The notes beneath the pieces were generated by a model. That model was given only the letters and a program-made list of their open reading frames with translations. It ran no database searches and was not told the origin of the DNA. Below are positions 1 through 7,827 of a stretch of 7,827 nt of DNA, one piece after another. The DNA lies in IMG/VR virus record IMGVR_UViG_2778261572_000001, positions 1-7,827 of that record, one strand, 5' to 3'. The DNA is from a virus. Lineage: Duplodnaviria; Heunggongvirae; Uroviricota; Caudoviricetes. A program made the position numbers and the translations under genes. Positions within the stretch are counted from its first letter, which is position 1; each line of letters opens with the position of its first letter.

Positions 1-168
1 GGCGTTCCCCCAAAGCAGGTAATTCCGTTATGCCAGCTAATGAAGTGGGAAGTTACCCCGCATGAAATCCGCCCAGATATTTATCCTAACCCGACCGATG
101 GTTTACCTGTTGGATGTAAGGCTAACACACAAAATGCACAGGAGTTGATTCATGAAAATCAGGCATGA
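1..168 (+). CDS. Cro/YdaS-like HTH regulator, C-terminal fragment (5' end lies outside the window)
   Basis: Frame 1 is open from the window edge to TGA at 166-168 and translates ...LMKWEVTPHEIRPDIYPNPTDGLPVGCKANTQNAQELIHENQA. It sits immediately upstream of the CII-like gene and overlaps it by 17 nt, which is the position cro/ydaS occupies in Rac-type prophages. The family assignment is from memory and from synteny only. Confidence 0.4.
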   Translation, partial: GVPPKQVIPLCQLMKWEVTPHEIRPDIYPNPTDGLPVGCKANTQNAQELIHENQA

Positions 169-574
169 GCACATCGAATCAGTGCTGTTAGCCCTGGCCG
201 CTGAAAAAGGGCAGGCGTGGGTCGCTAACGCAATTACTGAAGAATATCTGCGCCAGGGGGGCGGCGAATTGCCCCTGGTACCAGGCAAGGACTGGAACAA
301 TCAGCAGAATATCTATCATCGTTGGTTGAAAGGTGAAACGAATGCGCAAAGGGAAAAAATTCAGAAACTGATCCCAGCAATTCTGGCAATCCTTCCGCGC
401 GAGCTGCGTCACCGACTCTGCATCTTCGATACCCTGGAACGCCGTGCATTACTGGCGGCGCAGGAAGCGTTGAGTACGGCAATTGATGCGCATGATGATG
501 CAGTCCAGGCCGTTTACCGGAAAGCACATTTCAGCGGTGGTGGAGCGTCCGACGATTCTGTTGTAGTGCATTGA
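152..574 (+). CDS. ydaT: YdaT-like (CII-like) prophage regulator, 140 aa
   Basis: ATG at 152 is preceded by GGAG at 141-144 with a 7-nt spacer; stop TGA at 572-574. The 140-aa length and the position between a cro-like gene and the replication genes match Rac prophage YdaT as I recall it. The translation starts MKIRHEHIESVLLALAAEKGQAWVANAITEEYLRQGGGELPLVPGKDW. Confidence 0.62.
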   Translation: MKIRHEHIESVLLALAAEKGQAWVANAITEEYLRQGGGELPLVPGKDWNNQQNIYHRWLKGETNAQREKIQKLIPAILAILPRELRHRLCIFDTLERRALLAAQEALSTAIDAHDDAVQAVYRKAHFSGGGASDDSVVVH

Positions 575-593
575 TTGAATAGGGTATCCAATA

Positions 594-1007
594 ATGAAAA
601 TCAAACCGTACATAAATGCCGGAAATCTTACTCCCGGCGAACTACGAGACTGGATCCTGAAACTTGCAAAAAATGCAGAAATTGCGGGTTGGGGTACAGA
701 AACTTCGGTTCGGAAGCTTCAGAGCGCAGAACTTAGCCTGCGCTCAGTTATGGACGATTTATCCCCAAGAATTAATTTTCTGGGGTCAGAGCAAATAATT
801 CGTTCGGAAGGTCACTCCAGCGAAGTTGCGGAAGTTCTGAATACTCTGAGGATAACGTTTGCTGCCGTTCGCGATATTCAACGAACCATTCTCTCATTGA
901 TTTCTCAGCTTCAAGAAATTGATAGTCGCATTCCTGGCGGGGGTCATAGAGAGCGTCTTCCAGAATGTGAAGAGCAAGGACAGGGGAAACAGATAAGGGA
1001 TCAGTAA
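594..1007 (+). CDS. hypothetical protein, 137 aa (conflicts with the minus-strand ORF 772-1227)
   Basis: ATG at 594 lies 19 nt after the ydaT-like stop, with only a weak RBS (AGGG at 581-584). First codon positions are G-rich, which is a coding-like signature, and the translation contains amphipathic helix-like stretches (VAEVLNTLRITFAAVRDIQRTILSLISQLQEIDSRI). It uses many rare codons (ATA, AGA, AGG, CGA, CTA). I recognise no family. Confidence 0.35.
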   Translation: MKIKPYINAGNLTPGELRDWILKLAKNAEIAGWGTETSVRKLQSAELSLRSVMDDLSPRINFLGSEQIIRSEGHSSEVAEVLNTLRITFAAVRDIQRTILSLISQLQEIDSRIPGGGHRERLPECEEQGQGKQIRDQ

Positions 1008-1227
1008 TACGTTTTTCACTTGCCTGGTATAGCAATCTCGCCAGCGAATCATAGCTACTGGGGCTCAGGAGAGAATCCCGTGAGTGATTTGTAAGAATCA
1101 GGTGGAAGCGGGTGAGAACTATAGCCCTGCATGTTACCAGGTTAACCATGTCGTGGTCGTGCTGGTTAATTTTGTACACAGTGCGCATGTGATTTTTAAT
1201 TTTTTGGCAAACAGCCATTAAAGACAT
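772..1227 (-). CDS. hypothetical protein, 151 aa, divergent from the replication module
   Basis: On the minus strand a canonical AGGAGG (complement of 1234-1239) sits 6 nt before the ATG (complement of 1225-1227). The ORF overlaps the 3' 236 nt of the plus-strand ORF 594-1007, so at most one of the two is likely real. First codon positions are not G-enriched, which counts against it. No recognisable motif. Confidence 0.38.
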   Translation of the reverse strand: MSLMAVCQKIKNHMRTVYKINQHDHDMVNLVTCRAIVLTRFHLILTNHSRDSLLSPSSYDSLARLLYQASEKRITDPLSVSPVLALHILEDALYDPRQECDYQFLEAEKSMREWFVEYRERQQTLSSEYSELPQLRWSDLPNELFALTPEN

Positions 1228-1290
1228 GTCGAACCTCCTTTGGTTCTGTTGATTGGGGAATCACAGATTATATCCGGAGGAAGGTTCGAC
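1228..1290. promoter_or_regulatory. divergent intergenic region with an imperfect inverted repeat GTCGAACCTCC (1228-1238) / GGAGGAAGGTTCGAC (1276-1290)
   Basis: Both arms were read directly from the sequence. Each arm carries a Shine-Dalgarno-like GGAGG followed by TTCGAC, facing outward toward the minus-strand ORF and the replication gene. A role as operator or divergent promoter region is inferred; promoter hexamers were not confidently placed. Confidence 0.3.
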
Positions 1291-1306
1291 ACCAGATGAG
1301 GCAATT

Positions 1307-2431
1307 ATGGTTAAGGCTAAAAACATGCCAAATCCCATGCCAAAAACTAAGGCAAACAACGAGCCTTATCGCAAGGTAAAAATAACGATATGGGATGATC
1401 CCAAATTTAGGGCGTTATCTCCTCTGCCTCCAAGTGGACAGAGTTTGTTTATTTATCTGCTGACCAGTCCATTTACCGGGATTATTCCTGGGTTGTTTAA
1501 AGCCGGGCGGGCAGCAATGGCTGAAGAGTTGGGGTGGGATATCGAAGCCTTTGACTTAGCCTTAGGCGAAGCCATGAATCTTGGCATGGTGAAAGCAGAT
1601 ATCAAAGCCAGAGTTTTTTGGCTCCCGAATGCTGCGAAACACAATCCGCCAAACTCGATAAATGTCATTAAATCCTGGGCAAAGGCATTCGCTTTAATTC
1701 CTGATTGCCCTCTCAAATGGGAGGCCAGGGAATCGCTGAGAGCCGCGTCCTACGGGGTTTCTGAGGCTTTGGGGATGGCATTCGATAAGGCAATCCCTTT
1801 GCCTGAGGATAAGCCTAAGGATAAGGCTAACGCTTTGTCATGCGGTATCCAGATAACAGATAACAGATATATAAACCCCACACATAACGCGCGCGTGCGC
1901 GAGAGTGTTCCGGCCAGTGAGGCAAATGGCGTGCCGTTGCAGACAGCGGAACCTGATTACCTGGAAGGCCTGAGCGAACCCATCGGGAAATTTCCGATGA
2001 CCGATGGCTGGCATCCGTCGCCGGATTTTCGACGACGGGCTGCGCTGTGGGGCGTGGCTCTTCCTGAGCCGGAATTTACACCAGCTGAACTTGCCGCCTT
2101 CCGGGACTACTGGACAGCGGAGGGGAAAGTTTTCACGCAGGTTCAGTGGGAGCAGAAATTCGCCCGTCACGTACATCACGTCAGGGCGCAGGTTAAACCA
2201 GTCAGCAAGGGGGGGAACCATGCAGCAACGCCAGGTGGCACCGCATCACGGGCAGTTCAGGAAATTCGGGCAGCACGTGAGCAGTGGGAACGTGAAAACG
2301 GATTTATCCTCGACGGAAACGGCGTGGAAGCTGTGGGAACTCATGGGGGAGGTTTATTCGAACCGCTGGACCCAGAAGAACGGGGCCGCACCTTCGAAGC
2401 TCTGGATTGCACAGATTGGCGCGATGACTGA
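1307..2431 (+). CDS. phage replication initiation protein (O-like position), 374 aa from ATG 1307, with a C-terminal region resembling the DnaT-type domain
   Basis: The frame is open from 1253 to TGA at 2429-2431. ATG 1307 is preferred (GAGG at 1298-1301, 5-nt spacer); TTG 1253 and ATG 1326 are alternatives. The C-terminal region ([39 protein letters not shown]) resembles the DnaT-like ssDNA-binding domain found in phage replication proteins, as far as I can recall it. The gene sits directly upstream of a P-like gene. Confidence 0.6.
1784..1901. repeat. iteron-like repeat cluster inside the replication initiator gene (candidate origin)
   Basis: GATAAG occurs at 1784-1789, 1808-1813 and 1820-1825, the last two within a 12-bp tandem GAGGATAAGCCT/AAGGATAAGGCT at 1805-1828. 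A tandem CAGATAA CAGATAA CAGATAT follows at 1850-1870, then an AT-rich ATATATAAAC and a GC-rich palindrome CGCGC-GT-GCGCG at 1890-1901. The layout is analogous to ori-lambda, which lies inside the O gene. Confidence 0.4.
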
Positions 2432-2885
2432 GCAGCAAATCCGTCAGGTCTGCCGCCAGTGCATGGACCGCTGCCGGGCGGGTGAAACATGGCCTCCGGA
2501 CCTGGCTGAGTTTGTTGCGCTGATTTCGGAGAGTGGGGCAAATCCATTTGGTCTGACGGTGGATAACGTGATGGAGGAGTACCGCCGCTGGCGCAACGAG
2601 TCCTGGCGATACGACGGGAGCGATAAATACCCGTGGTCTCAGCCCGTGCTGTATCACATTTGCCTCGAGATGCGGGCAAAAGGGATTGAGCGTCAGATGA
2701 CCGAAGGGGAGTTAAAACGACTTGCAGAACGGCAACTAGCGAAATGGGCAAAGCATGTTGGTGACGGCTTCAGCGTTCCGCCCGTCCGGCGGCAACTGGT
2801 AGCACCAAAACGCCCGTCGGGGCCAACTCCAATTGAGTTGCTGAAACAGGAATATGAACGCCGGAAAGCGGCTGGGTTTGTTTGA
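2220..2885 (+). CDS. replication protein P-like helicase loader, 221 aa from ATG 2220
   Basis: The translation aligns by eye with lambda P: [33 protein letters not shown] against TTMEQVNAGMRVARRQNRPFLPSPGQFVAW, and [17 protein letters not shown] against YPWKSNAHYWLVTNLYQ. ATG 2220 follows a G-rich tract. Alternative starts are ATG 2343 and ATG 2424, the latter overlapping the upstream stop as ATGACTGA. Stop TGA at 2883-2885. Confidence 0.65.
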
Positions 2886-2919
2886 GTTGAGAAGTAATTT
2901 TTACCGGGAGGAAATTTTA

Positions 2920-3663
2920 ATGGAGACCGTTTTTGACACACTGAAAGCGATGGGAAAAGCCACGTCGGTAGAACTGGCTGCGCGACTTGATATCAGTCGT
3001 GAAGAAGTGCTGTGCGAGCTGTGGGAACTGAAAAAAGCTGGTTTCGTGGATAAAAACGCCTACACCTGGCGTGTGGCTGATAACAACGTTCAGCAGGAAC
3101 AGCCAGTGCAGGCTGAACTGCCGGAAGAAACCACCACGGCAACAGTCGCTAAAATTTCGGAGAGCGATTTAACTGCGACGATTGAACAACGTGGACCACA
3201 AACGGCGGATGAACTGGCTACGCTGTTCGGTACCACATCCCGCAAAGTGGCGTCAACGCTGGCAATGGCAATCAGCAAAGGTCGTCTGATTCGTGTAAAC
3301 CAGAACGGTAAATTTCGTTACTGCATACCGGGTGATAATTTACCAGCAGAGCCGAAAGCAGCATCGGTAGCGGAAACTGATGGTAAAGCCTTTCCTCAGC
3401 CAGCAGGTGTTGCGTTACCAGTACAGGAAGTTGCAACACAGGAAGATATTAAAACAGAAACTGTGGCGGACATTGTGCAGCCGCTTGAGAAGCGAGTGGA
3501 TAATCTGGTTCTGCCATCGCTGCGACAGGCAAACCGCGAACTGCGTCGGGCGAAAAATCATGTCCAGAAGTGGGAGCGAGTCTGCGCCGCGCTGCGGGAG
3601 CTGAATAAATATCGCGATATTGTCGCCCAGCTTTGCCAGGAGGCAACCAGTGAGCAAGATTGA
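2920..3663 (+). CDS. tandem winged-helix DNA-binding protein, 247 aa
   Basis: GGGAGG at 2906-2911 with an 8-nt spacer precedes ATG 2920. Two winged-helix-like modules are visible ([41 protein letters not shown] and [33 protein letters not shown]). The upstream ATG at 2854 has no RBS and was rejected. Confidence 0.62.
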
Positions 3664-4198
3664 CTATCAGGCACTGCGTGAGGCAGCAGAAGCAATAAAA
3701 ATAGCAGCCACACCACAAAAATTGCTGGCATTTCGTATGAAAGCCACACCTCAGGTTGTGTTGGAACTGCTGGATGAACTGGAAATTAAAAGCAAACGAA
3801 TTAACGAGTTAATCAAGGGTGGTGAAAACGCCAAATACGTGACTGAAATTTTCCGACTTGAGAAAGAACGCATGACGCTGGTGGCGGAGAATGCGGTAAT
3901 GCTCGAAACTATTGAAGCCGTTCGCAGTGTTGCGGATAACTCCAGTGGAATTGCCGGATGGCATTTGAATGGCGATATCGCCACATGGGAAGAGATTCTT
4001 CCTGAAATTAACGATATCGAAACCCCAGCCACCGATGCTTTCCTGGCTGATGTACGGGCGGTGGCGTTTAACGAGCTTCGCGCGGCGTTTGTCAGGCACG
4101 CAAAAGTTGCAGGACTGGATGATGCCGATACCGTAACGCTTAAGGAAGTGACAGAAGCATTATTGCATTGTGCGGAACAGATTCGCGCGCCTGAATAA
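3650..4198 (+). CDS. ead/Ea22-like family prophage protein, 182 aa (GTG start)
   Basis: AGGAGG at 3638-3643 with a 6-nt spacer precedes GTG 3650, and the gene overlaps the upstream stop by 14 nt. The N-terminus ([22 protein letters not shown]) resembles the QALREAAE signature I associate with Ea22-like prophage proteins. The ATG at 3620 given in the ORF track lacks an RBS. Confidence 0.5.
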
Positions 4199-4322
4199 TT
4201 AAATTTAGTGTTGTAAATAAAATTTAATCCTTAACCGGAGGGATTCCTGCACCCTCAAATCATCAGGAGGCCGCCCGAAAGGGCGGTAATAAAAATGGCT
4301 GAACTAATCGGAGAACAAAACG

Positions 4323-4517
4323 ATGAAAAACCGTAAAGCAAAAATTCTTTTGACCTGTAGAAACGCTCGCGGCGTCCAGCAATGGTTAAAACTCAGTAAC
4401 CGCAGAATGGGATTGTTCACAAATACGGCTGATATTGTGATGTGTTCACTTAACAAGCCCAGCGCCGCACAAAACCGCTGGAGAAACCACGGTTCTCAGC
4501 GAACTGAAGGGGAGTGA
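4323..4517 (+). CDS. small basic protein, 64 aa (uncertain)
   Basis: GGAG at 4310-4313 with a 9-nt spacer precedes ATG 4323. The translation is rich in K and R (MKNRKAKILLTCRNARGVQQWLKLSNRRMG...). It could instead be 5' UTR for the downstream genes. Confidence 0.3.
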   Translation: MKNRKAKILLTCRNARGVQQWLKLSNRRMGLFTNTADIVMCSLNKPSAAQNRWRNHGSQRTEGE

Positions 4518-4520
4518 TAT

Positions 4521-4739
4521 ATGCCTGCATTTTTCAGAAAAGAATATCCGCGAAAGATCAGAGCAACAGAATTCCTGTTTCTCATTCTGTTTATCGTGTT
4601 GATGATACCGATATCCCCGTTAATTCTGGTATGGGGAATCGGGAAAATAATTGAGCCAGTTATTGAATTGTATAACGACGTGGTATGGGCGTCGTTCAAC
4701 ACATTGCACAATAAAATTAATCCATATAAGGAAAACTGA
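4521..4739 (+). CDS. small single-pass membrane protein, 72 aa
   Basis: A strong RBS (AAGGGGAG) lies 6 nt before ATG 4521. The translation has a basic N-terminus (RKEYPRKIR) followed by one hydrophobic helix (FLFLILFIVLMIPISPLILVWGIG). The region is AT-rich. Confidence 0.55.
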   Translation: MPAFFRKEYPRKIRATEFLFLILFIVLMIPISPLILVWGIGKIIEPVIELYNDVVWASFNTLHNKINPYKEN

Positions 4740-4740
4740 A

Positions 4741-5235
4741 ATGACTTTTACCGAAAAAGAAATGATTAAAGAAATCAAAGAGCGTATCAGTAGCCTGGAC
4801 GTACGAGACGATATTGAGCGCCGGGCTTATGAAATTACATTGGCATCACTGGAAGCAGAGCCGGTAGCATGGAGTGTAGGCAATGCTATAACTCGTGACC
4901 ATGAGAAAGCACAAAAGATTGCCGGGGATACTGGATTTTCAATTATTCCATTATACACTGTCGCAAAAGATGCTCAGAGTGTGACAAATCATTGGATGCC
5001 TGAAGTTGGCGAATATTGCGAAGTATGTACTGATGACTCTGAAATTGAATGGTTAAAAATCAAGGTGGTTGCTATTCATGGCGATGAGGTAGCCGCCATT
5101 GTTTGTGACCCTGACGATTATTATTATGATCGCTTAAAGCTTTTGGGTTGGGAATACGACAATTCTGTTTTTCGCCCTCTATCCGAAGGCGATGTTGAAA
5201 ATAACCCGATAAGTGCGGAGAACACATTACGATGA
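4741..5235 (+). CDS. hypothetical acidic protein, 164 aa
   Basis: ATG 4741 is coupled to the upstream stop (TGAAATG) and preceded by AAGGA about 8 nt upstream. The ATG at 4651 in the ORF track overlaps the previous gene and has no RBS. The C-terminal half is rich in D, E and Y (CDPDDYYYDRLKLLGWEYDNSVF). I recognise no family with confidence. Confidence 0.58.
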   Translation: MTFTEKEMIKEIKERISSLDVRDDIERRAYEITLASLEAEPVAWSVGNAITRDHEKAQKIAGDTGFSIIPLYTVAKDAQSVTNHWMPEVGEYCEVCTDDSEIEWLKIKVVAIHGDEVAAIVCDPDDYYYDRLKLLGWEYDNSVFRPLSEGDVENNPISAENTLR

Positions 5236-5315
5236 CCTGGCCTGAAGCATTCACAACGGTAGGAATTGCGATGGCGGTGGCGCTGGTGGTGTATTCGATT
5301 TGCCGCTGGGGATAA
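5232..5315 (+). CDS. 27-aa hydrophobic peptide (MTWPEAFTTVGIAMAVALVVYSICRWG)
   Basis: Its ATG overlaps the upstream stop as ATGA at 5232-5235, a classic coupling arrangement. The single hydrophobic stretch is long enough for a transmembrane helix. It is absent from the ORF track because it falls below the size cutoff. Confidence 0.35.
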   Translation: MTWPEAFTTVGIAMAVALVVYSICRWG

Positions 5316-5322
5316 AAACGGT

Positions 5323-5350
5323 TTGCGGGAAAAGGAGAGTTAAGTAGAAT
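5323..5350 (+). promoter_or_regulatory. candidate weak promoter for hok/mok mRNA
   Basis: TTGCGG at 5323-5328, a 16-nt spacer, then TAGAAT at 5345-5350. This places the transcript start near 5357, exactly where the 5' element complementary to the 3' end begins (5355-5368). Confidence 0.3.
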
Positions 5351-5409
5351 TGCAGCGGGTGCTTGAGGCTATCTGTCTCAGGCATGAACACCAAAAGGCA
5401 GATAGAGAA

Positions 5410-5480
5410 AAGCCCCAGTTAACATTACGCGTCCTGCAAGACGCTTAACATTAATCTGAGGCTCAATCCATGCTGAACAC
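5410..5480 (-). ncRNA. sok: Sok-like antisense RNA (position inferred)
   Basis: In hok/sok loci the antisense RNA is transcribed opposite the mok translation-initiation region. A candidate minus-strand promoter is present: TTGCCT (complement of 5508-5513), a 17-nt spacer, then TAACCT (complement of 5485-5490). The coordinates are approximate and the ends are not determined. Confidence 0.3.
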
Positions 5481-5682
5481 ATGTAGGTTAGCCTCTTACG
5501 TGCCGAAAGGCAAGGAGAAGCAGGCTATGAAGCAGCAAAAGGCGATGTTAATCGCCCTGATCGTCATCTGTTTAACCGTCATAGTGACGGCACTGGTAAC
5601 GAGGAAAGACCTCTGCGAGGTACGAATCCGAACCGGCCAGACGGAAGTCGCTGTCTTCACAGCTTACGAACCTGAGGAGTAA
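5470..5682 (+). CDS. mok: Mok-like in-frame upstream reading frame of hok, 70 aa
   Basis: ATG 5470 is in frame with hok, with GAGG at 5457-5460 and a 9-nt spacer. The N-terminus MLNTCR... matches the chromosomal MokC-type extension as I recall it. Confidence 0.5.
   Translation: MLNTCRLASYVPKGKEKQAMKQQKAMLIALIVICLTVIVTALVTRKDLCEVRIRTGQTEVAVFTAYEPEE
5527..5682 (+). CDS. hok: Hok/Gef family type I membrane toxin, 51 aa
   Basis: The translation MKQQKAMLIALIVICLTVIVTALVTRKDLCEVRIRTGQTEVAVFTAYEPEE is an unmistakable Hok/Gef family sequence, by my recollection closest to HokD/RelF. AAGGAG at 5512-5517 with a 9-nt spacer precedes ATG 5527. Confidence 0.85.
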   Translation: MKQQKAMLIALIVICLTVIVTALVTRKDLCEVRIRTGQTEVAVFTAYEPEE

Positions 5683-5689
5683 GAGACCT

Positions 5690-5746
5690 GGCGGGGGAGA
5701 AATCTCCCGCCACCTCTGATGTGTCAGGCATCCTCAATGCACCCGC
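5690..5746 (+). other. hok mRNA 3' structure: stem-loop plus fbi-like element complementary to the mRNA 5' end
   Basis: A stem-loop lies at 5690-5711 (GGCGGGGGAG aaat CTCCCGCC). The segment 5732-5746 (CCTCAATGCACCCGC) can pair over 14 bp, with one bulge, to 5355-5368 (GCGGGTGCTTGAGG). This is the long-range tac/fbi interaction characteristic of hok mRNAs. Confidence 0.5.
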
Positions 5747-5806
5747 ACCTGACGCGTTTTGCTGGGTTAATGTTGAGCCATTTGTCATGTTAATAAGGAG
5801 GAGTGA

Positions 5807-6672
5807 ATGAGAACGTATATTAAAGAGTTGAGATGGGGTAATTTTATCCTGCTCAGAGGTGATATGATTTCTAATTATGCTTCAAATTATGGGGAATGGT
5901 GCGAGGTTGAGGTTGACTTATACAAAACATTATTATCAGAAGGTAGTAATGTTATAGAGATAGGTGCAAACATAGGACTGCATACAATTCCATTGTCAAA
6001 AATTTGTGGTAAAGGGAGCATAATATGCTTTGAACCGCAACCACCAATATTTAACATGTTATGTGGTAATTTGGCTATAAATAATATATTGAATGTTATG
6101 CCATATAACAAAGCTGTTGGAGATAGGTGTGGTAGTGTTGTAATTCCTGTGTCTTCGTATGATAAACCATGGAATTATGGTTCATTTTCAATTGAAAAAG
6201 GTTATAATAGTGAAGGTGATTATGATGCCAGCCCAGCCCAGCCCAGCAATGCATTGATCTAATCACAATAGATGCATTTACGGAATCAACGGGCTTGAAA
6301 GTTGATTTTATTAAAATAGATGTTGAAGGCTATGAACTAAACTGTATTCGCGGGGCCGTAAACACAATAAAGGATAACAGACCAGCAATATTTTGTGAAG
6401 CCATTAATAAAAATATTACAAATGAGGTTGTGTCTTTTTTATCAGATCTTGGTTATGAAGGTTTTTGGTTCATTGGAAACAGATATAGACAAGATAACTT
6501 TTTTGCATGTCCTGGACAAATCTATAATAAATTGAGTTATGATGTTAATATTATCTTCATTCATAAAGAGGACAGGGGGGGATCGAGAAATCTATGTAGA
6601 GAAAGGCTTAAAAGATTCGAGTATTTTGAGCAATTACATGAAGGGATAACTGTTCTGAATTCATATCCTTAA
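5807..6672 (+). pseudogene. FkbM-family (Methyltransf_21) SAM-dependent methyltransferase, frameshifted at a pentanucleotide repeat
   Basis: The N-terminal ORF 5807-6262 carries the VIEIGANIG glycine-rich SAM-binding motif and the ICFEP motif. The C-terminal reading frame is open from 6226 to 6672 and carries KVDFIKIDVEGYEL. The two frames meet at the repeat at 6227-6247; deleting one 5-nt unit gives a single ORF of about 286 aa. A strong RBS (AGGAG at 5796-5800) precedes ATG 5807. The region is markedly AT-rich, roughly one-third GC by eye. Confidence 0.7.
6227..6247. repeat. pentanucleotide tandem repeat GCCAG(CCCAG)3C
   Basis: Read directly from the sequence. It forms a GC-rich island inside an AT-rich gene, exactly at the frame break of the methyltransferase. 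Confidence 0.9.
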
Positions 6673-6697
6673 AAATATCTGTATTACTTCATGTTAG

Positions 6698-6750
6698 CAG
6701 ATAAACCAATTCCGAACATTGGGGTTGGTTTATCTGTATTTATGTTTTAT
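6698..6750 (+). terminator. candidate intrinsic terminator after the methyltransferase gene
   Basis: A perfect 12-bp inverted repeat, CAGATAAACCAA (6698-6709) and TTGGTTTATCTG (6725-6736), is followed by a T-rich tract (TATTTATGTTTTAT). Confidence 0.45.
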
Positions 6751-6814
6751 CATTAGAATAAAGCCAGTCTGAACAACTGGCATCTGCTGCACTGCGCCAT
6801 AGAGAGATTAATAA

Positions 6815-7414
6815 ATGGCGCATATACAACTGGTCAAACATACTTCTTCTGGTTTACTTCTCCCGGCGACGCCGGAGAGTTGCGATTTTTTGCATCAAAT
6901 CAAAATAGGTGAGTGGATACACGCAGACTTTAAGCGTGTGCGTAACTACGCATTCCACAAGCGTTTTTTCAAACTCCTGCAACTGGGATTCGATTACTGG
7001 ACTCCGGTCGGTGGGGCGATCACGCCTCGCGAACGAAAACTGGTATCAGGCTTCGTTGATTACCTGTGCGAATCAGTAGGTCGGGAACACACTCCAGCCC
7101 TGAGTGATGCCGCAGAGCAATACCTTAATACAGTTGCGACATGCAGAACCCGGGATACGGCATTGCTAAAGTCGTTTGACGCTTTCCGCGAGTGGGTAAC
7201 CATTCAGGCCGGATTTTACACCGAGCATATTTATCCGGACGGTAGCCGCGGGCGTCGAGCGAAATCCATCGCGTTTGCGAATATGGACGAAACCGAGTTT
7301 CAGCAGGTTTATAAATCTGTGCTGAATGTGCTGTGGAACTGGATCCTGTTCCGTAAATTTTCCTCTCCGGAACAAGTCGAAAATGTGGCCGCGCAGCTAC
7401 TGGAGTTTGCGTAA
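6815..7414 (+). CDS. DUF1367-like prophage nin-region protein, 199 aa
   Basis: ATG 6815 follows the terminator-like hairpin, and the stop overlaps the next start as TAATG. The family assignment is from memory of proteins of this size preceding DUF1364/YbcO genes in lambdoid prophages and was not verified. Confidence 0.55.
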   Translation: MAHIQLVKHTSSGLLLPATPESCDFLHQIKIGEWIHADFKRVRNYAFHKRFFKLLQLGFDYWTPVGGAITPRERKLVSGFVDYLCESVGREHTPALSDAAEQYLNTVATCRTRDTALLKSFDAFREWVTIQAGFYTEHIYPDGSRGRRAKSIAFANMDETEFQQVYKSVLNVLWNWILFRKFSSPEQVENVAAQLLEFA

Positions 7415-7704
7415 TGGTGAATTTACGTAAAGCGGCGCGGGGCCAGATGTGCCAGGTCAGAATCCCTGGATACTGCAATCATAATCCTGAAACGTCTGTG
7501 CTGGCGCATTACCGACTGGCGGGAACGTGTGGAACGGCGATAAAACCACACGATATGCAGGCAGCGATTGCCTGTAGCTCGTGCCACGATTTAATCGACG
7601 GGCGGGTAAAAACCAGCGATTACACCAAAGAAGAATTACGCCTGATACATGCAGAAGGTGTTTTTCGCACACAAGAAATCTGGAGAAAGGAAGGTTATTT
7701 ATGA
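7414..7704 (+). CDS. ybcO: YbcO-like (DUF1364) putative zinc-binding nuclease, 96 aa
   Basis: The translation MVNLRKAARGQMCQVRIPGYCNHNPETSVLAH...CSSCHDLIDGR matches my recollection of the YbcO family, including the N-terminal LRKAARG motif and the Cys cluster. It is coupled to the upstream gene (TAATG) and to the downstream gene (ATGA). Confidence 0.65.
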   Translation: MVNLRKAARGQMCQVRIPGYCNHNPETSVLAHYRLAGTCGTAIKPHDMQAAIACSSCHDLIDGRVKTSDYTKEELRLIHAEGVFRTQEIWRKEGYL

Positions 7705-7827
7705 TTTACCCAACGAATACAGGAAAAAGCGGAGAACACCTTCGTCTCACCACGCTGGAAAGTGTCTGGATTCAGGGGAAACTGCGTATGTGGGGGCGCT
7801 GGTCGTATATTGGTGGCGGTAAGACGG
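7701..7827 (+). CDS. 5' part of a downstream nin-region gene running off the window; possibly a Q-antiterminator-like protein
   Basis: A strong RBS (AAGGAAGG at 7687-7694) with a 6-nt spacer precedes ATG 7701, and the frame is open to the window end. The motif LRMWGRW loosely resembles the ERWGAW motif near the N-terminus of 82-type Q/QuuD antiterminators; this product guess is weak. Confidence 0.5.
   Translation, partial: MIYPTNTGKSGEHLRLTTLESVWIQGKLRMWGRWSYIGGGKT

Follow-up and report, generated by a model that had tools for sequence, protein, structure and literature searches.

Two convergent genes in the early operon of a Rac-type prophage probably share a doubly constrained coding core

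The DNA analysed here comprised positions 1 to 7,827 of the IMG/VR virus record IMGVR_UViG_2778261572_000001 and is referred to as the window (7,827 nucleotides, nt). It belongs to a Rac-type lambdoid prophage of Escherichia coli, and its positions 400-1500 were 100% identical to strain TUM1881 (NZ_CP128979). Two open reading frames (ORFs) of the window were studied: a plus-strand ORF at 594-1007 (ATG start, 137 amino acids, aa) and a minus-strand ORF at 772-1227 (ATG start, 151 aa), called here the rightward and the leftward gene. They share 236 nt (772-1007) and are flanked by the YdaT/CII-like gene (152-574) and a gene with a DnaT domain; in all of this the ORF list and the gene order agreed with a preliminary description made from the sequence alone. 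That description had treated the two ORFs as mutually exclusive, with one of them coding. Instead, both frames were conserved, and each had a non-overlapping coding part of its own. From these comparisons the two ORFs are probably not alternatives, and they appear to be convergent conserved genes with their 3' halves on the same DNA.

Comparisons were made across 17 lineages, namely the window, L034, L040, L042, L004, L006, L031, L033, L036, L037, L038, L045, L074-L077 and L085. The lineages were from Escherichia, Salmonella, Serratia and viral contigs, with protein identities down to 29-34%; a scan of genome contigs contributed one locus only. The two ORFs were convergent and in the same phase (position 1 opposite position 1) in all lineages, with overlaps of 159-273 nt. 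Two properties of an overlapping pair were thereby found, a long stretch shared by opposite strands (236 nt in the window) and retention of both frames and of their phase across homologues diverged to 29-34% identity. Both frames were open in every lineage, the plus frame through at least codon 110 in all 17. At the divergent loci the antisense phase was open for 138-158 codons (longer in L007) and ended at nearly the same place. Since both ORFs were conserved in all divergent relatives, their retention is far beyond chance. More distant loci, in which the leftward protein was 29-37% identical (L045, L074-L086), had likewise retained a partner in the same phase, with 194-272 nt shared.

The leftward product matched full-length homologues of 151 aa in Salmonella and Serratia down to 49-58% identity in the first protein searches, and full-length homologues of 148-162 aa were recovered down to 22-30% identity. 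This is a small family, with 23 representatives left after clustering at 50% in a set of 1.84 billion proteins. Its C-terminal motif LPELxWxDLPxELF was invariant and sits inside the overlap. Outside the shared core, the proportion of synonymous differences (pS) was 0.72-0.73 and the ratio of nonsynonymous to synonymous differences (pN/pS) was 0.35-0.46 in eight divergent lineages. The start is preceded by a perfect ribosome-binding site (RBS), as had been described: CAT at 1225-1227, a spacer at 1228-1233 and CCTCCT at 1234-1239 read AGGAGG-TTCGAC-ATG on the minus strand. The leader AGAACCnAAGGAGGTTCGAC-ATG was nearly invariant in the 17 lineages. Full-length homologues, selection outside the core and conserved synteny thus bear out what the earlier description had put conditionally, a real gene directed against the early operon. 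In one close relative (L030, IMGVR_UViG_2731957942_000002), a deletion of 1 nt at the equivalent of window position 1198 brings the leftward frame to a stop after 26 codons and leaves the plus ORF intact. The C-terminal NELF(G/A)L motif was considered as a clamp-binding motif and dropped, as the consensus did not fit.

For the rightward product, the first protein searches gave matches of at least 85% identity only. A profile of antisense translations then recovered divergent plus-strand proteins in Klebsiella and Salmonella that had been called independently by gene finders. Homologues were present in the 16 other lineages, with a conserved N-terminal sequence and an ATG start in all but one of the 17. 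The homology extends outside the leftward gene, where MKIKPYINAGNLTPGELRDWILKLAKNAE aligns with MNTQPVIDAGNLSSEELSAWLIGVATAAK. The non-overlapping 58-69 codons contained 0 in-frame stops, compared with 65 and 70 in the other two frames. In this part pS was 0.73 and pN/pS 0.60 (eight divergent lineages), and change by plus codon position over 594-771 was 0.50, 0.39 and 0.62, the third position being highest. The RBS is weak in the window, as previously noted (tagggtatccaataATG), and several relatives have a strong Shine-Dalgarno (SD) sequence before the gene, e.g. aggaggaagtATG. The product matched the PHROGs profile phrog_37051, a family of unknown function, over residues 1-137 of 137 (E = 1.9e-91). 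Two lineages have a naturally shorter ORF: that of L036 encodes 110 aa, and that of L006 encodes 129-134 aa according to which start is taken.

Inside the shared core, where minus codons 100-151 lie opposite plus codons 60-112, pS fell from 0.72 to 0.41 in the minus frame and from 0.73 to 0.30 in the plus frame (eight divergent lineages), and all three codon positions were equally slow (0.22-0.29). On four phylogenetically independent pairs, codons for conserved amino acids carried a synonymous change in 120 of 216 cases outside the core and in 29 of 125 inside it for the leftward gene (Fisher p = 5e-9); the respective counts for the rightward gene were 54/105 and 19/128 (Fisher p = 3e-9). A 13-codon profile placed the change at about minus codon 97 and plus codons ~53-66, at the predicted boundary. 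The preliminary description had considered synonymous conservation in one frame only, or in neither; suppression was instead observed in both frames within the core. Sites synonymous in the minus frame were suppressed to 0.40, compared with 0.72 outside.

The probability of an open frame was calculated exactly over synonymous recodings. Given the plus protein, the minus frame would be open with a probability of 0.012-0.10 per lineage; given the minus protein, the plus frame would be open with 0.13-0.42. The products over eight lineages, treated as independent, were ~1e-12 and ~1e-5, respectively. Opposite the N-terminal 73 minus codons, the same antisense phase contained 0-7 stops. Because the plus frame is open by chance at 0.13-0.42 per lineage, ORF preservation in the overlap alone was taken as moderate evidence. 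An OLGenie-style partition of the core gave proportions of differences of 0.18 at sites nonsynonymous in both frames (pNN), 0.23 at sites nonsynonymous in the minus frame only (pNS) and 0.40 at sites nonsynonymous in the plus frame only (pSN). The ratio for the minus frame, pNN/pSN, was 0.45 (confidence interval, CI, 0.27-0.69), which indicates purifying selection on the leftward protein inside the core. Among close relatives (96-99.6% identical), substitutions in the overlap were synonymous 6 times in the minus and 5 times in the plus frame, so that no frame was favoured.

The last part of the rightward ORF behaved differently from the core. An AlphaFold model of the rightward protein (predicted local distance difference test, pLDDT, 74) had helices at residues 14-31, 35-64 and 72-112, the last pairing with helix 35-64. 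Blocks of 10 residues had pLDDT values of 82-96 from residue 41 on, taking in the overlap-encoded residues 60-112; residues 116-137 were below 50 and modelled as disordered. Change in the tail clustered at plus position 2, the third position of the minus codons, where 0.64 of sites differed. The plus stop falls, as read from the sequence, on a conserved (I/V)-T dipeptide of the leftward protein. The tail, which is unselected, reads on through the leftward gene, and the nominal overlap of 236 nt therefore resolves into a doubly constrained core of ~158 nt and 78 nt of free-riding read-on. Positions are collected in Table 1.

Table 1. Features of the overlapping gene pair and its surroundings, numbered by position in the window
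Feature	Positions	Strand	Basis
Rightward gene, 137 aa, 19 nt after ydaT, co-directional with the early operon	594-1007	+	ORF, homologues
Conserved core of the rightward protein, predicted to be folded, codons 1 to ~112	594-929	+	Alignments; extent of the modelled helices (to residue 112)
Unselected C-terminal tail of the rightward ORF, codons 113-137	930-1007	+	pN/pS = 1.21, low pLDDT
Leftward gene, 151 aa, against the early operon	772-1227	-	ORF, homologues, pN/pS
Doubly constrained shared core, minus codons 100-151 opposite plus codons 60-112	772-929	both	pS drop, step profile
SD AGGAGG of the leftward gene, 6 nt before ATG 1227-1225	1234-1239	-	Sequence
Leader/inverted-repeat element of the slot, ~70 nt	1225-1295	both	Conservation, folding
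Candidate leftward promoter: -35 TGGTGT 1294-1289, 16-nt spacer, -10 TATAAT 1272-1267	1267-1294	-	Predicted
Alternative sigma-70-like promoter, TTGGCA-16-CATAAT, 10/12	1304-1331	-	Predicted, higher-scoring
Terminator-like hairpin of the leftward transcript, 133 nt beyond the stop and within the 5' part of the rightward gene	618-638	-	Prediction
ydaT (CII-like regulator), upstream neighbour in the early operon	152-574	+	Pfam PF06254 (YdaT_toxin) E = 1e-11, phrog_163; annotation by the Prokaryotic Genome Annotation Pipeline (PGAP)
Replication initiator with DnaT domain, downstream neighbour	1307-2431	+	Pfam PF17948, phrog_1408

Natural variants of the pair were found at several loci. In L045 (3501-4528) the rightward gene is duplicated in tandem. 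The first copy (120 aa) has no antisense partner, and the second (126 aa) shares 194 nt with a leftward homologue of 157 aa. The partner-less paralogue keeps the RIDFLTSGQIIRSEEH region despite having no antisense ORF, and the RI(D/N)FLxSxQII region is kept in the partner-less proteins P0035 of L045 and P0036 of L044. In L044 the rightward gene stands alone; all that is left of the leftward gene is ATG-GAC-TTA-A, immediately behind the conserved leader. The pair in L046 has decayed. In L007 (Trabulsiella guamensis; 1466-2492) the leftward gene is intact.

The leader of the leftward gene is part of an inverted repeat of ~70 nt (1225-1295). Its left arm, GTCGAACCTCC, is antisense to the SD, and the right arm reads GGA(A)GGTTCGRC; one arm holds the SD and ATG of the leftward gene, and the loop holds a promoter-like -10. 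The element, with a mean column identity of 77% over 14 lineages, was much more conserved than the proteins of these lineages (29-50% identical). Its folding energy was -32.2 kcal/mol (z = -4.2) for the plus-strand RNA and -27.3 kcal/mol (z = -3.8) for the minus-strand RNA, and compensatory change was seen in 2 of 21 pairs. The Rfam search gave no match. The element was also found in L002 (3734-3800) and L044 (3862-3934, leftward gene deleted). As it heads an unrelated leftward gene in L002, it belongs to the slot and not to the gene, and it may serve there as a module junction or in regulation.

The candidate promoter at 1294-1267 predicts a leader of ~30 nt with a free SD. A -10-like hexamer (TATAAT, TATCCT, TAGCCT or TATTCT) ends 36-39 nt before the leftward ATG in most lineages. 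The alternative site at 1331-1304 overlaps with its -10 the ATG of the replication gene (1307) and scored highest only in the window and in L042; a transcript starting from it would contain both hairpin arms. The role of the terminator-like hairpin at 618-638 is doubtful because it was not conserved in other lineages. Matches to the published YdaT operator, TTGATT-N6-AATCAA, were also recorded. One with a single mismatch, TTGATTCATGAAAATCAG, lies at 145-162, at the ydaS/ydaT junction and in the same position as the operator in CP-933P. Two sites with 2 mismatches lie inside the cassette (897-914 and 1084-1101), and matches with the N6 spacing numbered 4, compared with 0.74 expected. The N4-spaced variant TTGATTGGGGAATCAC (palindrome TTGATT-N4-AATCAC, 1249-1264) is situated at the predicted leftward transcript start; as a YdaT operator it was rejected for its wrong spacing (N4, not N6), and it was kept as a lead only.

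The two ORFs form a cassette that occupies a variable slot in the early operons of Rac-type and lambdoid prophages, between regulators of the cro/cII type and replication genes. At the divergent loci, the 151-aa gene follows directly on a cro/ydaS-type gene and precedes the replication genes, pointing against them. One prophage with a Cox/integrase switch also carries the two-gene cassette. In a survey of 5,426 complete E. coli genomes, the flanks were matched in 1,507 and the whole stretch was present in 22. The cassette is polymorphic for presence and absence, as expected of a moron: 22 of the 1,507 flank-matching genomes carry it, L002 has an alternative and L044 is a deletion derivative. 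The 0.65-kb stretch, which had been described as unexpected, is indeed extra relative to many Rac-type prophages. In L002 (E. coli F9792, NZ_CP024273; 3188-3736) another cassette occupies the same slot. It resembles that of the window in its flanks, in the identical leftward leader and SD and in its plan: a 98-aa gene runs rightward and an 83-aa gene runs leftward towards it, the two abutting stop to stop. It differs in that the proteins are unrelated and the coding DNA of the two genes is not shared. The 98-aa and 83-aa proteins had no match in Pfam.

Annotation by PGAP was inconsistent, with the minus ORF alone in TUM1881 and the plus ORF alone in JNEC-KY178; both were annotated in one phage record, PP818812.1 (L047). 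This record is titled 'Actinobacillus phage vB_Apl-pPE4' and has 98% protein identity to the E. coli Rac-type module described here and the same gene order (recE, kil, dicA-like, ydaT). Its host label looks doubtful. The replication initiator downstream likely starts at ATG 1307, judging from GAGG 5 nt upstream and from homologues of 368-375 aa. The PGAP start of this gene (window 1253-2431; L001 7118-8032) corresponds to window position 1517 and gives 305 aa, and in view of the homologue lengths and the GAGG before ATG 1307 it is probably too far downstream. The next gene encodes a lambda-P-like loader. Elsewhere in the window, adjacent ORFs at 5807-6262 and 6295-6672, in an island of low guanine plus cytosine (GC) content (31-39% GC), match N- and C-terminal parts of methyltransferases (weakly TRM5/TYW2; FkbM domain, E = 1e-10). 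They look like a single gene for an FkbM-type methyltransferase that a stop or frameshift has split. An ORF at 5470-5682 encodes a toxin of the Hok/Gef family (E = 3e-23) and is presumably part of a type I toxin-antitoxin locus of the hok/sok type.

Taken on the comparative evidence, we consider it likely that both ORFs are genuine protein-coding genes with a doubly constrained core in common. Several points weigh against this. The weakest link is the plus frame inside the core, where pNN/pNS was 0.78 (CI 0.53-1.13) and showed a trend only. The plus phase stays open by chance fairly easily, the lineages are not fully independent, and the rightward gene has a weak RBS in the window. Synonymous suppression could in principle also result from a constraint at the RNA level. 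In L007, a 254-aa ORF with an unrelated N-terminus reads in frame into the overlap and replaces the N-terminus of the rightward protein, so the leftward gene can exist without its canonical partner; this ORF is either a fusion or a recombinant remnant. The leftward promoter is a prediction, a search across the lineages for a conserved intrinsic terminator of the leftward transcript found none, and the model of the leftward protein is of low confidence (pLDDT 63). Neither protein was linked to a function by searches of Pfam, NCBIfam, PADLOC, PHROGs, PDB or fold libraries.

The first two of these points also support the view that both genes are real and that the rightward protein needs its first ~60-70 residues only, the suppression at 772-929 then being due to an RNA or DNA element such as antisense pairing or a processing or termination signal. 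The non-significant pNN/pNS of 0.78 (CI 0.53-1.13), the demonstrably unselected tail and the chance of 0.13-0.42 per lineage for an open plus frame all fit. Such a short protein would, however, have to be reconciled with a plus frame that is open through at least codon 110 in 17 of 17 lineages, with partner-less paralogues that keep homologous sequence through the overlap region and with residues 72-112, which AlphaFold predicts as a confident helix (block pLDDT 83-96) pairing with helix 35-64. An RNA element, moreover, found no counterpart in Rfam. We regard this explanation as unlikely.

The selection test for the plus frame would also be in line with a leftward gene that codes alone, the rightward ORF being a shadow in the antisense phase least prone to stops and the conserved 594-771 a 3' untranslated or regulatory region of the leftward gene. 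In most records PGAP annotates the minus ORF alone, and the weak RBS and unselected tail of the plus ORF point the same way. However, 594-771 lies outside the leftward gene and has a conserved ATG and SD in relatives, 0 in-frame stops as against 65 and 70, and change biased to the third position; in addition, loci with the rightward gene alone exist (L044 and the L045 paralogue). This makes a shadow ORF very unlikely in our judgement. That the rightward gene alone codes and the leftward ORF arose by chance, with a fortuitous RBS, is scarcely credible. It could call on the annotation of the plus ORF alone in JNEC-KY178 and on a PHROGs family that exists for the rightward product and not for the leftward one. 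Against it stand a length of 148-162 aa and an invariant motif kept to 22-30% identity, 99 initial codons outside the shared core with a pN/pS of 0.35-0.46, a chance of an open minus frame of 0.012-0.10 per lineage (product ~1e-12), the nearly invariant SD and leader, and a pNN/pSN of 0.45.

Two coding genes with a common core thus remain the preferred reading, and their products were searched for relatives of known function. Pfam and NCBIfam gave no match for either product or for divergent homologues, and PADLOC gave 0 matches for both products and three homologues, so that no defence or toxin-antitoxin system was indicated; neither product is recognisable, as had been stated before. The leftward family had no match in PHROGs. 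Sequence profiles of the PDB gave no useful match for either protein. Both proteins were all-helical in their models, the leftward one all-alpha at a pLDDT of 63. The model of the rightward protein retrieved only generic coiled coils from the PDB and BFVD in Foldseek searches (E > 0.1).

The genes rexAB of lambda and sieB of P22 are accessory genes of the moron type, expressed in lysogens. The cassette resembles them in its presence or absence in a conserved slot, its own leader and predicted promoter, and an orientation independent of the operon. It differs in having no homology to a known exclusion or defence protein (PADLOC, Pfam, PHROGs) and in that half of it lies in the lytic operon. The oop transcript of lambda is short and non-coding and overlaps the end of cII. 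The predicted arrangement is similar here: leftward transcription would start in the short gap that separates the cII-type gene from the replication initiator and would converge on the early operon, with sense and antisense RNA as a result. Promoter-like sites at 1294-1267 and 1331-1304, with a conserved -10 position, are predictions. In contrast to oop, the leftward unit is not a short non-coding RNA but codes for a conserved protein of 151 aa, and it overlaps a separate 137-aa gene and not the cII-type gene. The cII-oop interaction of lambda has been discussed (PMC5869508).

By architecture, the closest precedent found is the temperate Pseudomonas phage Fc02 (B3-like). In that phage, olg1/olg2 on the lysogenic transcript overlap the early-lytic gene 10, the antisense overlap involves the gene following ner, and experiments showed that superinfecting phages are excluded by both products (PMC9936078). 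In both phages, a gene that would belong to the lysogenic programme lies opposite the gene after a cro-like gene (ner in Fc02), beside the immunity switch, in an accessory module of a temperate phage. The likeness considered is one of architecture, and the Fc02 locus also has a same-strand overlap. The deep conservation of a doubly constrained core is reported here, whereas no such analysis was noted in the passages of the Fc02 paper that were consulted. Long antisense overlapping genes have also been described in E. coli O157:H7 and P. aeruginosa (PMC9927249, PMC8850804). They are comparable in that opposite-strand coding frames share >150 nt and are argued from conservation and selection tests. 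By the descriptions in these papers they are (evolutionarily) novel antisense ORFs, those of P. aeruginosa being embedded in annotated genes, whereas the pair in the window consists of genes of similar size with non-overlapping halves of their own, arranged tail to tail and kept to ~30% identity. In a survey of prokaryotes, most antiparallel ORFs >180 bp were not under selection (bioRxiv 10.1101/724807), and the pair would therefore stand out as an exception. Induction modules of a transcription factor (TF) and a small ORF in linear plasmid-like phages (PMC10432266) were set aside since locus and architecture differ.

The anatomy of the locus would be compatible with a state-dependent, mutually antagonistic pair operating through convergent transcription, which we put forward tentatively as possible but doubtful. 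In a lysogen, with the early promoter repressed, the leftward gene alone would be expressed as an accessory gene of the moron type. Upon induction or infection, rightward transcription would yield the rightward protein, its gene on the early lytic transcript beginning 19 nt behind ydaT, and polymerase collision together with fully complementary RNA would shut down the leftward gene. The two products would then mark, and perhaps antagonise, alternative states of the phage, with a possible role in exclusion or defence. It is conceivable, if rather unlikely, that the overlap itself is the device. The products would form an antagonistic pair, for example an exclusion, abortive-infection or replication-blocking effector expressed in the lysogen and an early-lytic antidote. 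Convergent transcription with full complementarity would enforce an either/or choice, and the co-encoded C-terminal halves would block separation of effector and antidote by recombination in phages as highly mosaic as these. If this were true, the cassette would represent a new class of phage state-switch or defence module with obligatory antisense dual coding.

To our knowledge, it is very rare for two bona fide genes of bacteria or phages to overlap antiparallel over a long stretch, and most candidates that we know of are disputed, the second frame being young and without selection. The pair also exposes a systematic annotation error, as pipelines keep one ORF and discard the other arbitrarily. 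Each of its genes is anchored as coding by an independent, non-overlapping half, and overlap, phase and doubly constrained core persist to ~30% protein identity. The pair is therefore a clean natural system for the co-evolution of two proteins on one DNA, and its position between the regulators of lysis and lysogeny and the replication genes, where either side of the switch would have one of the two genes, suggests a regulatory or protective role.

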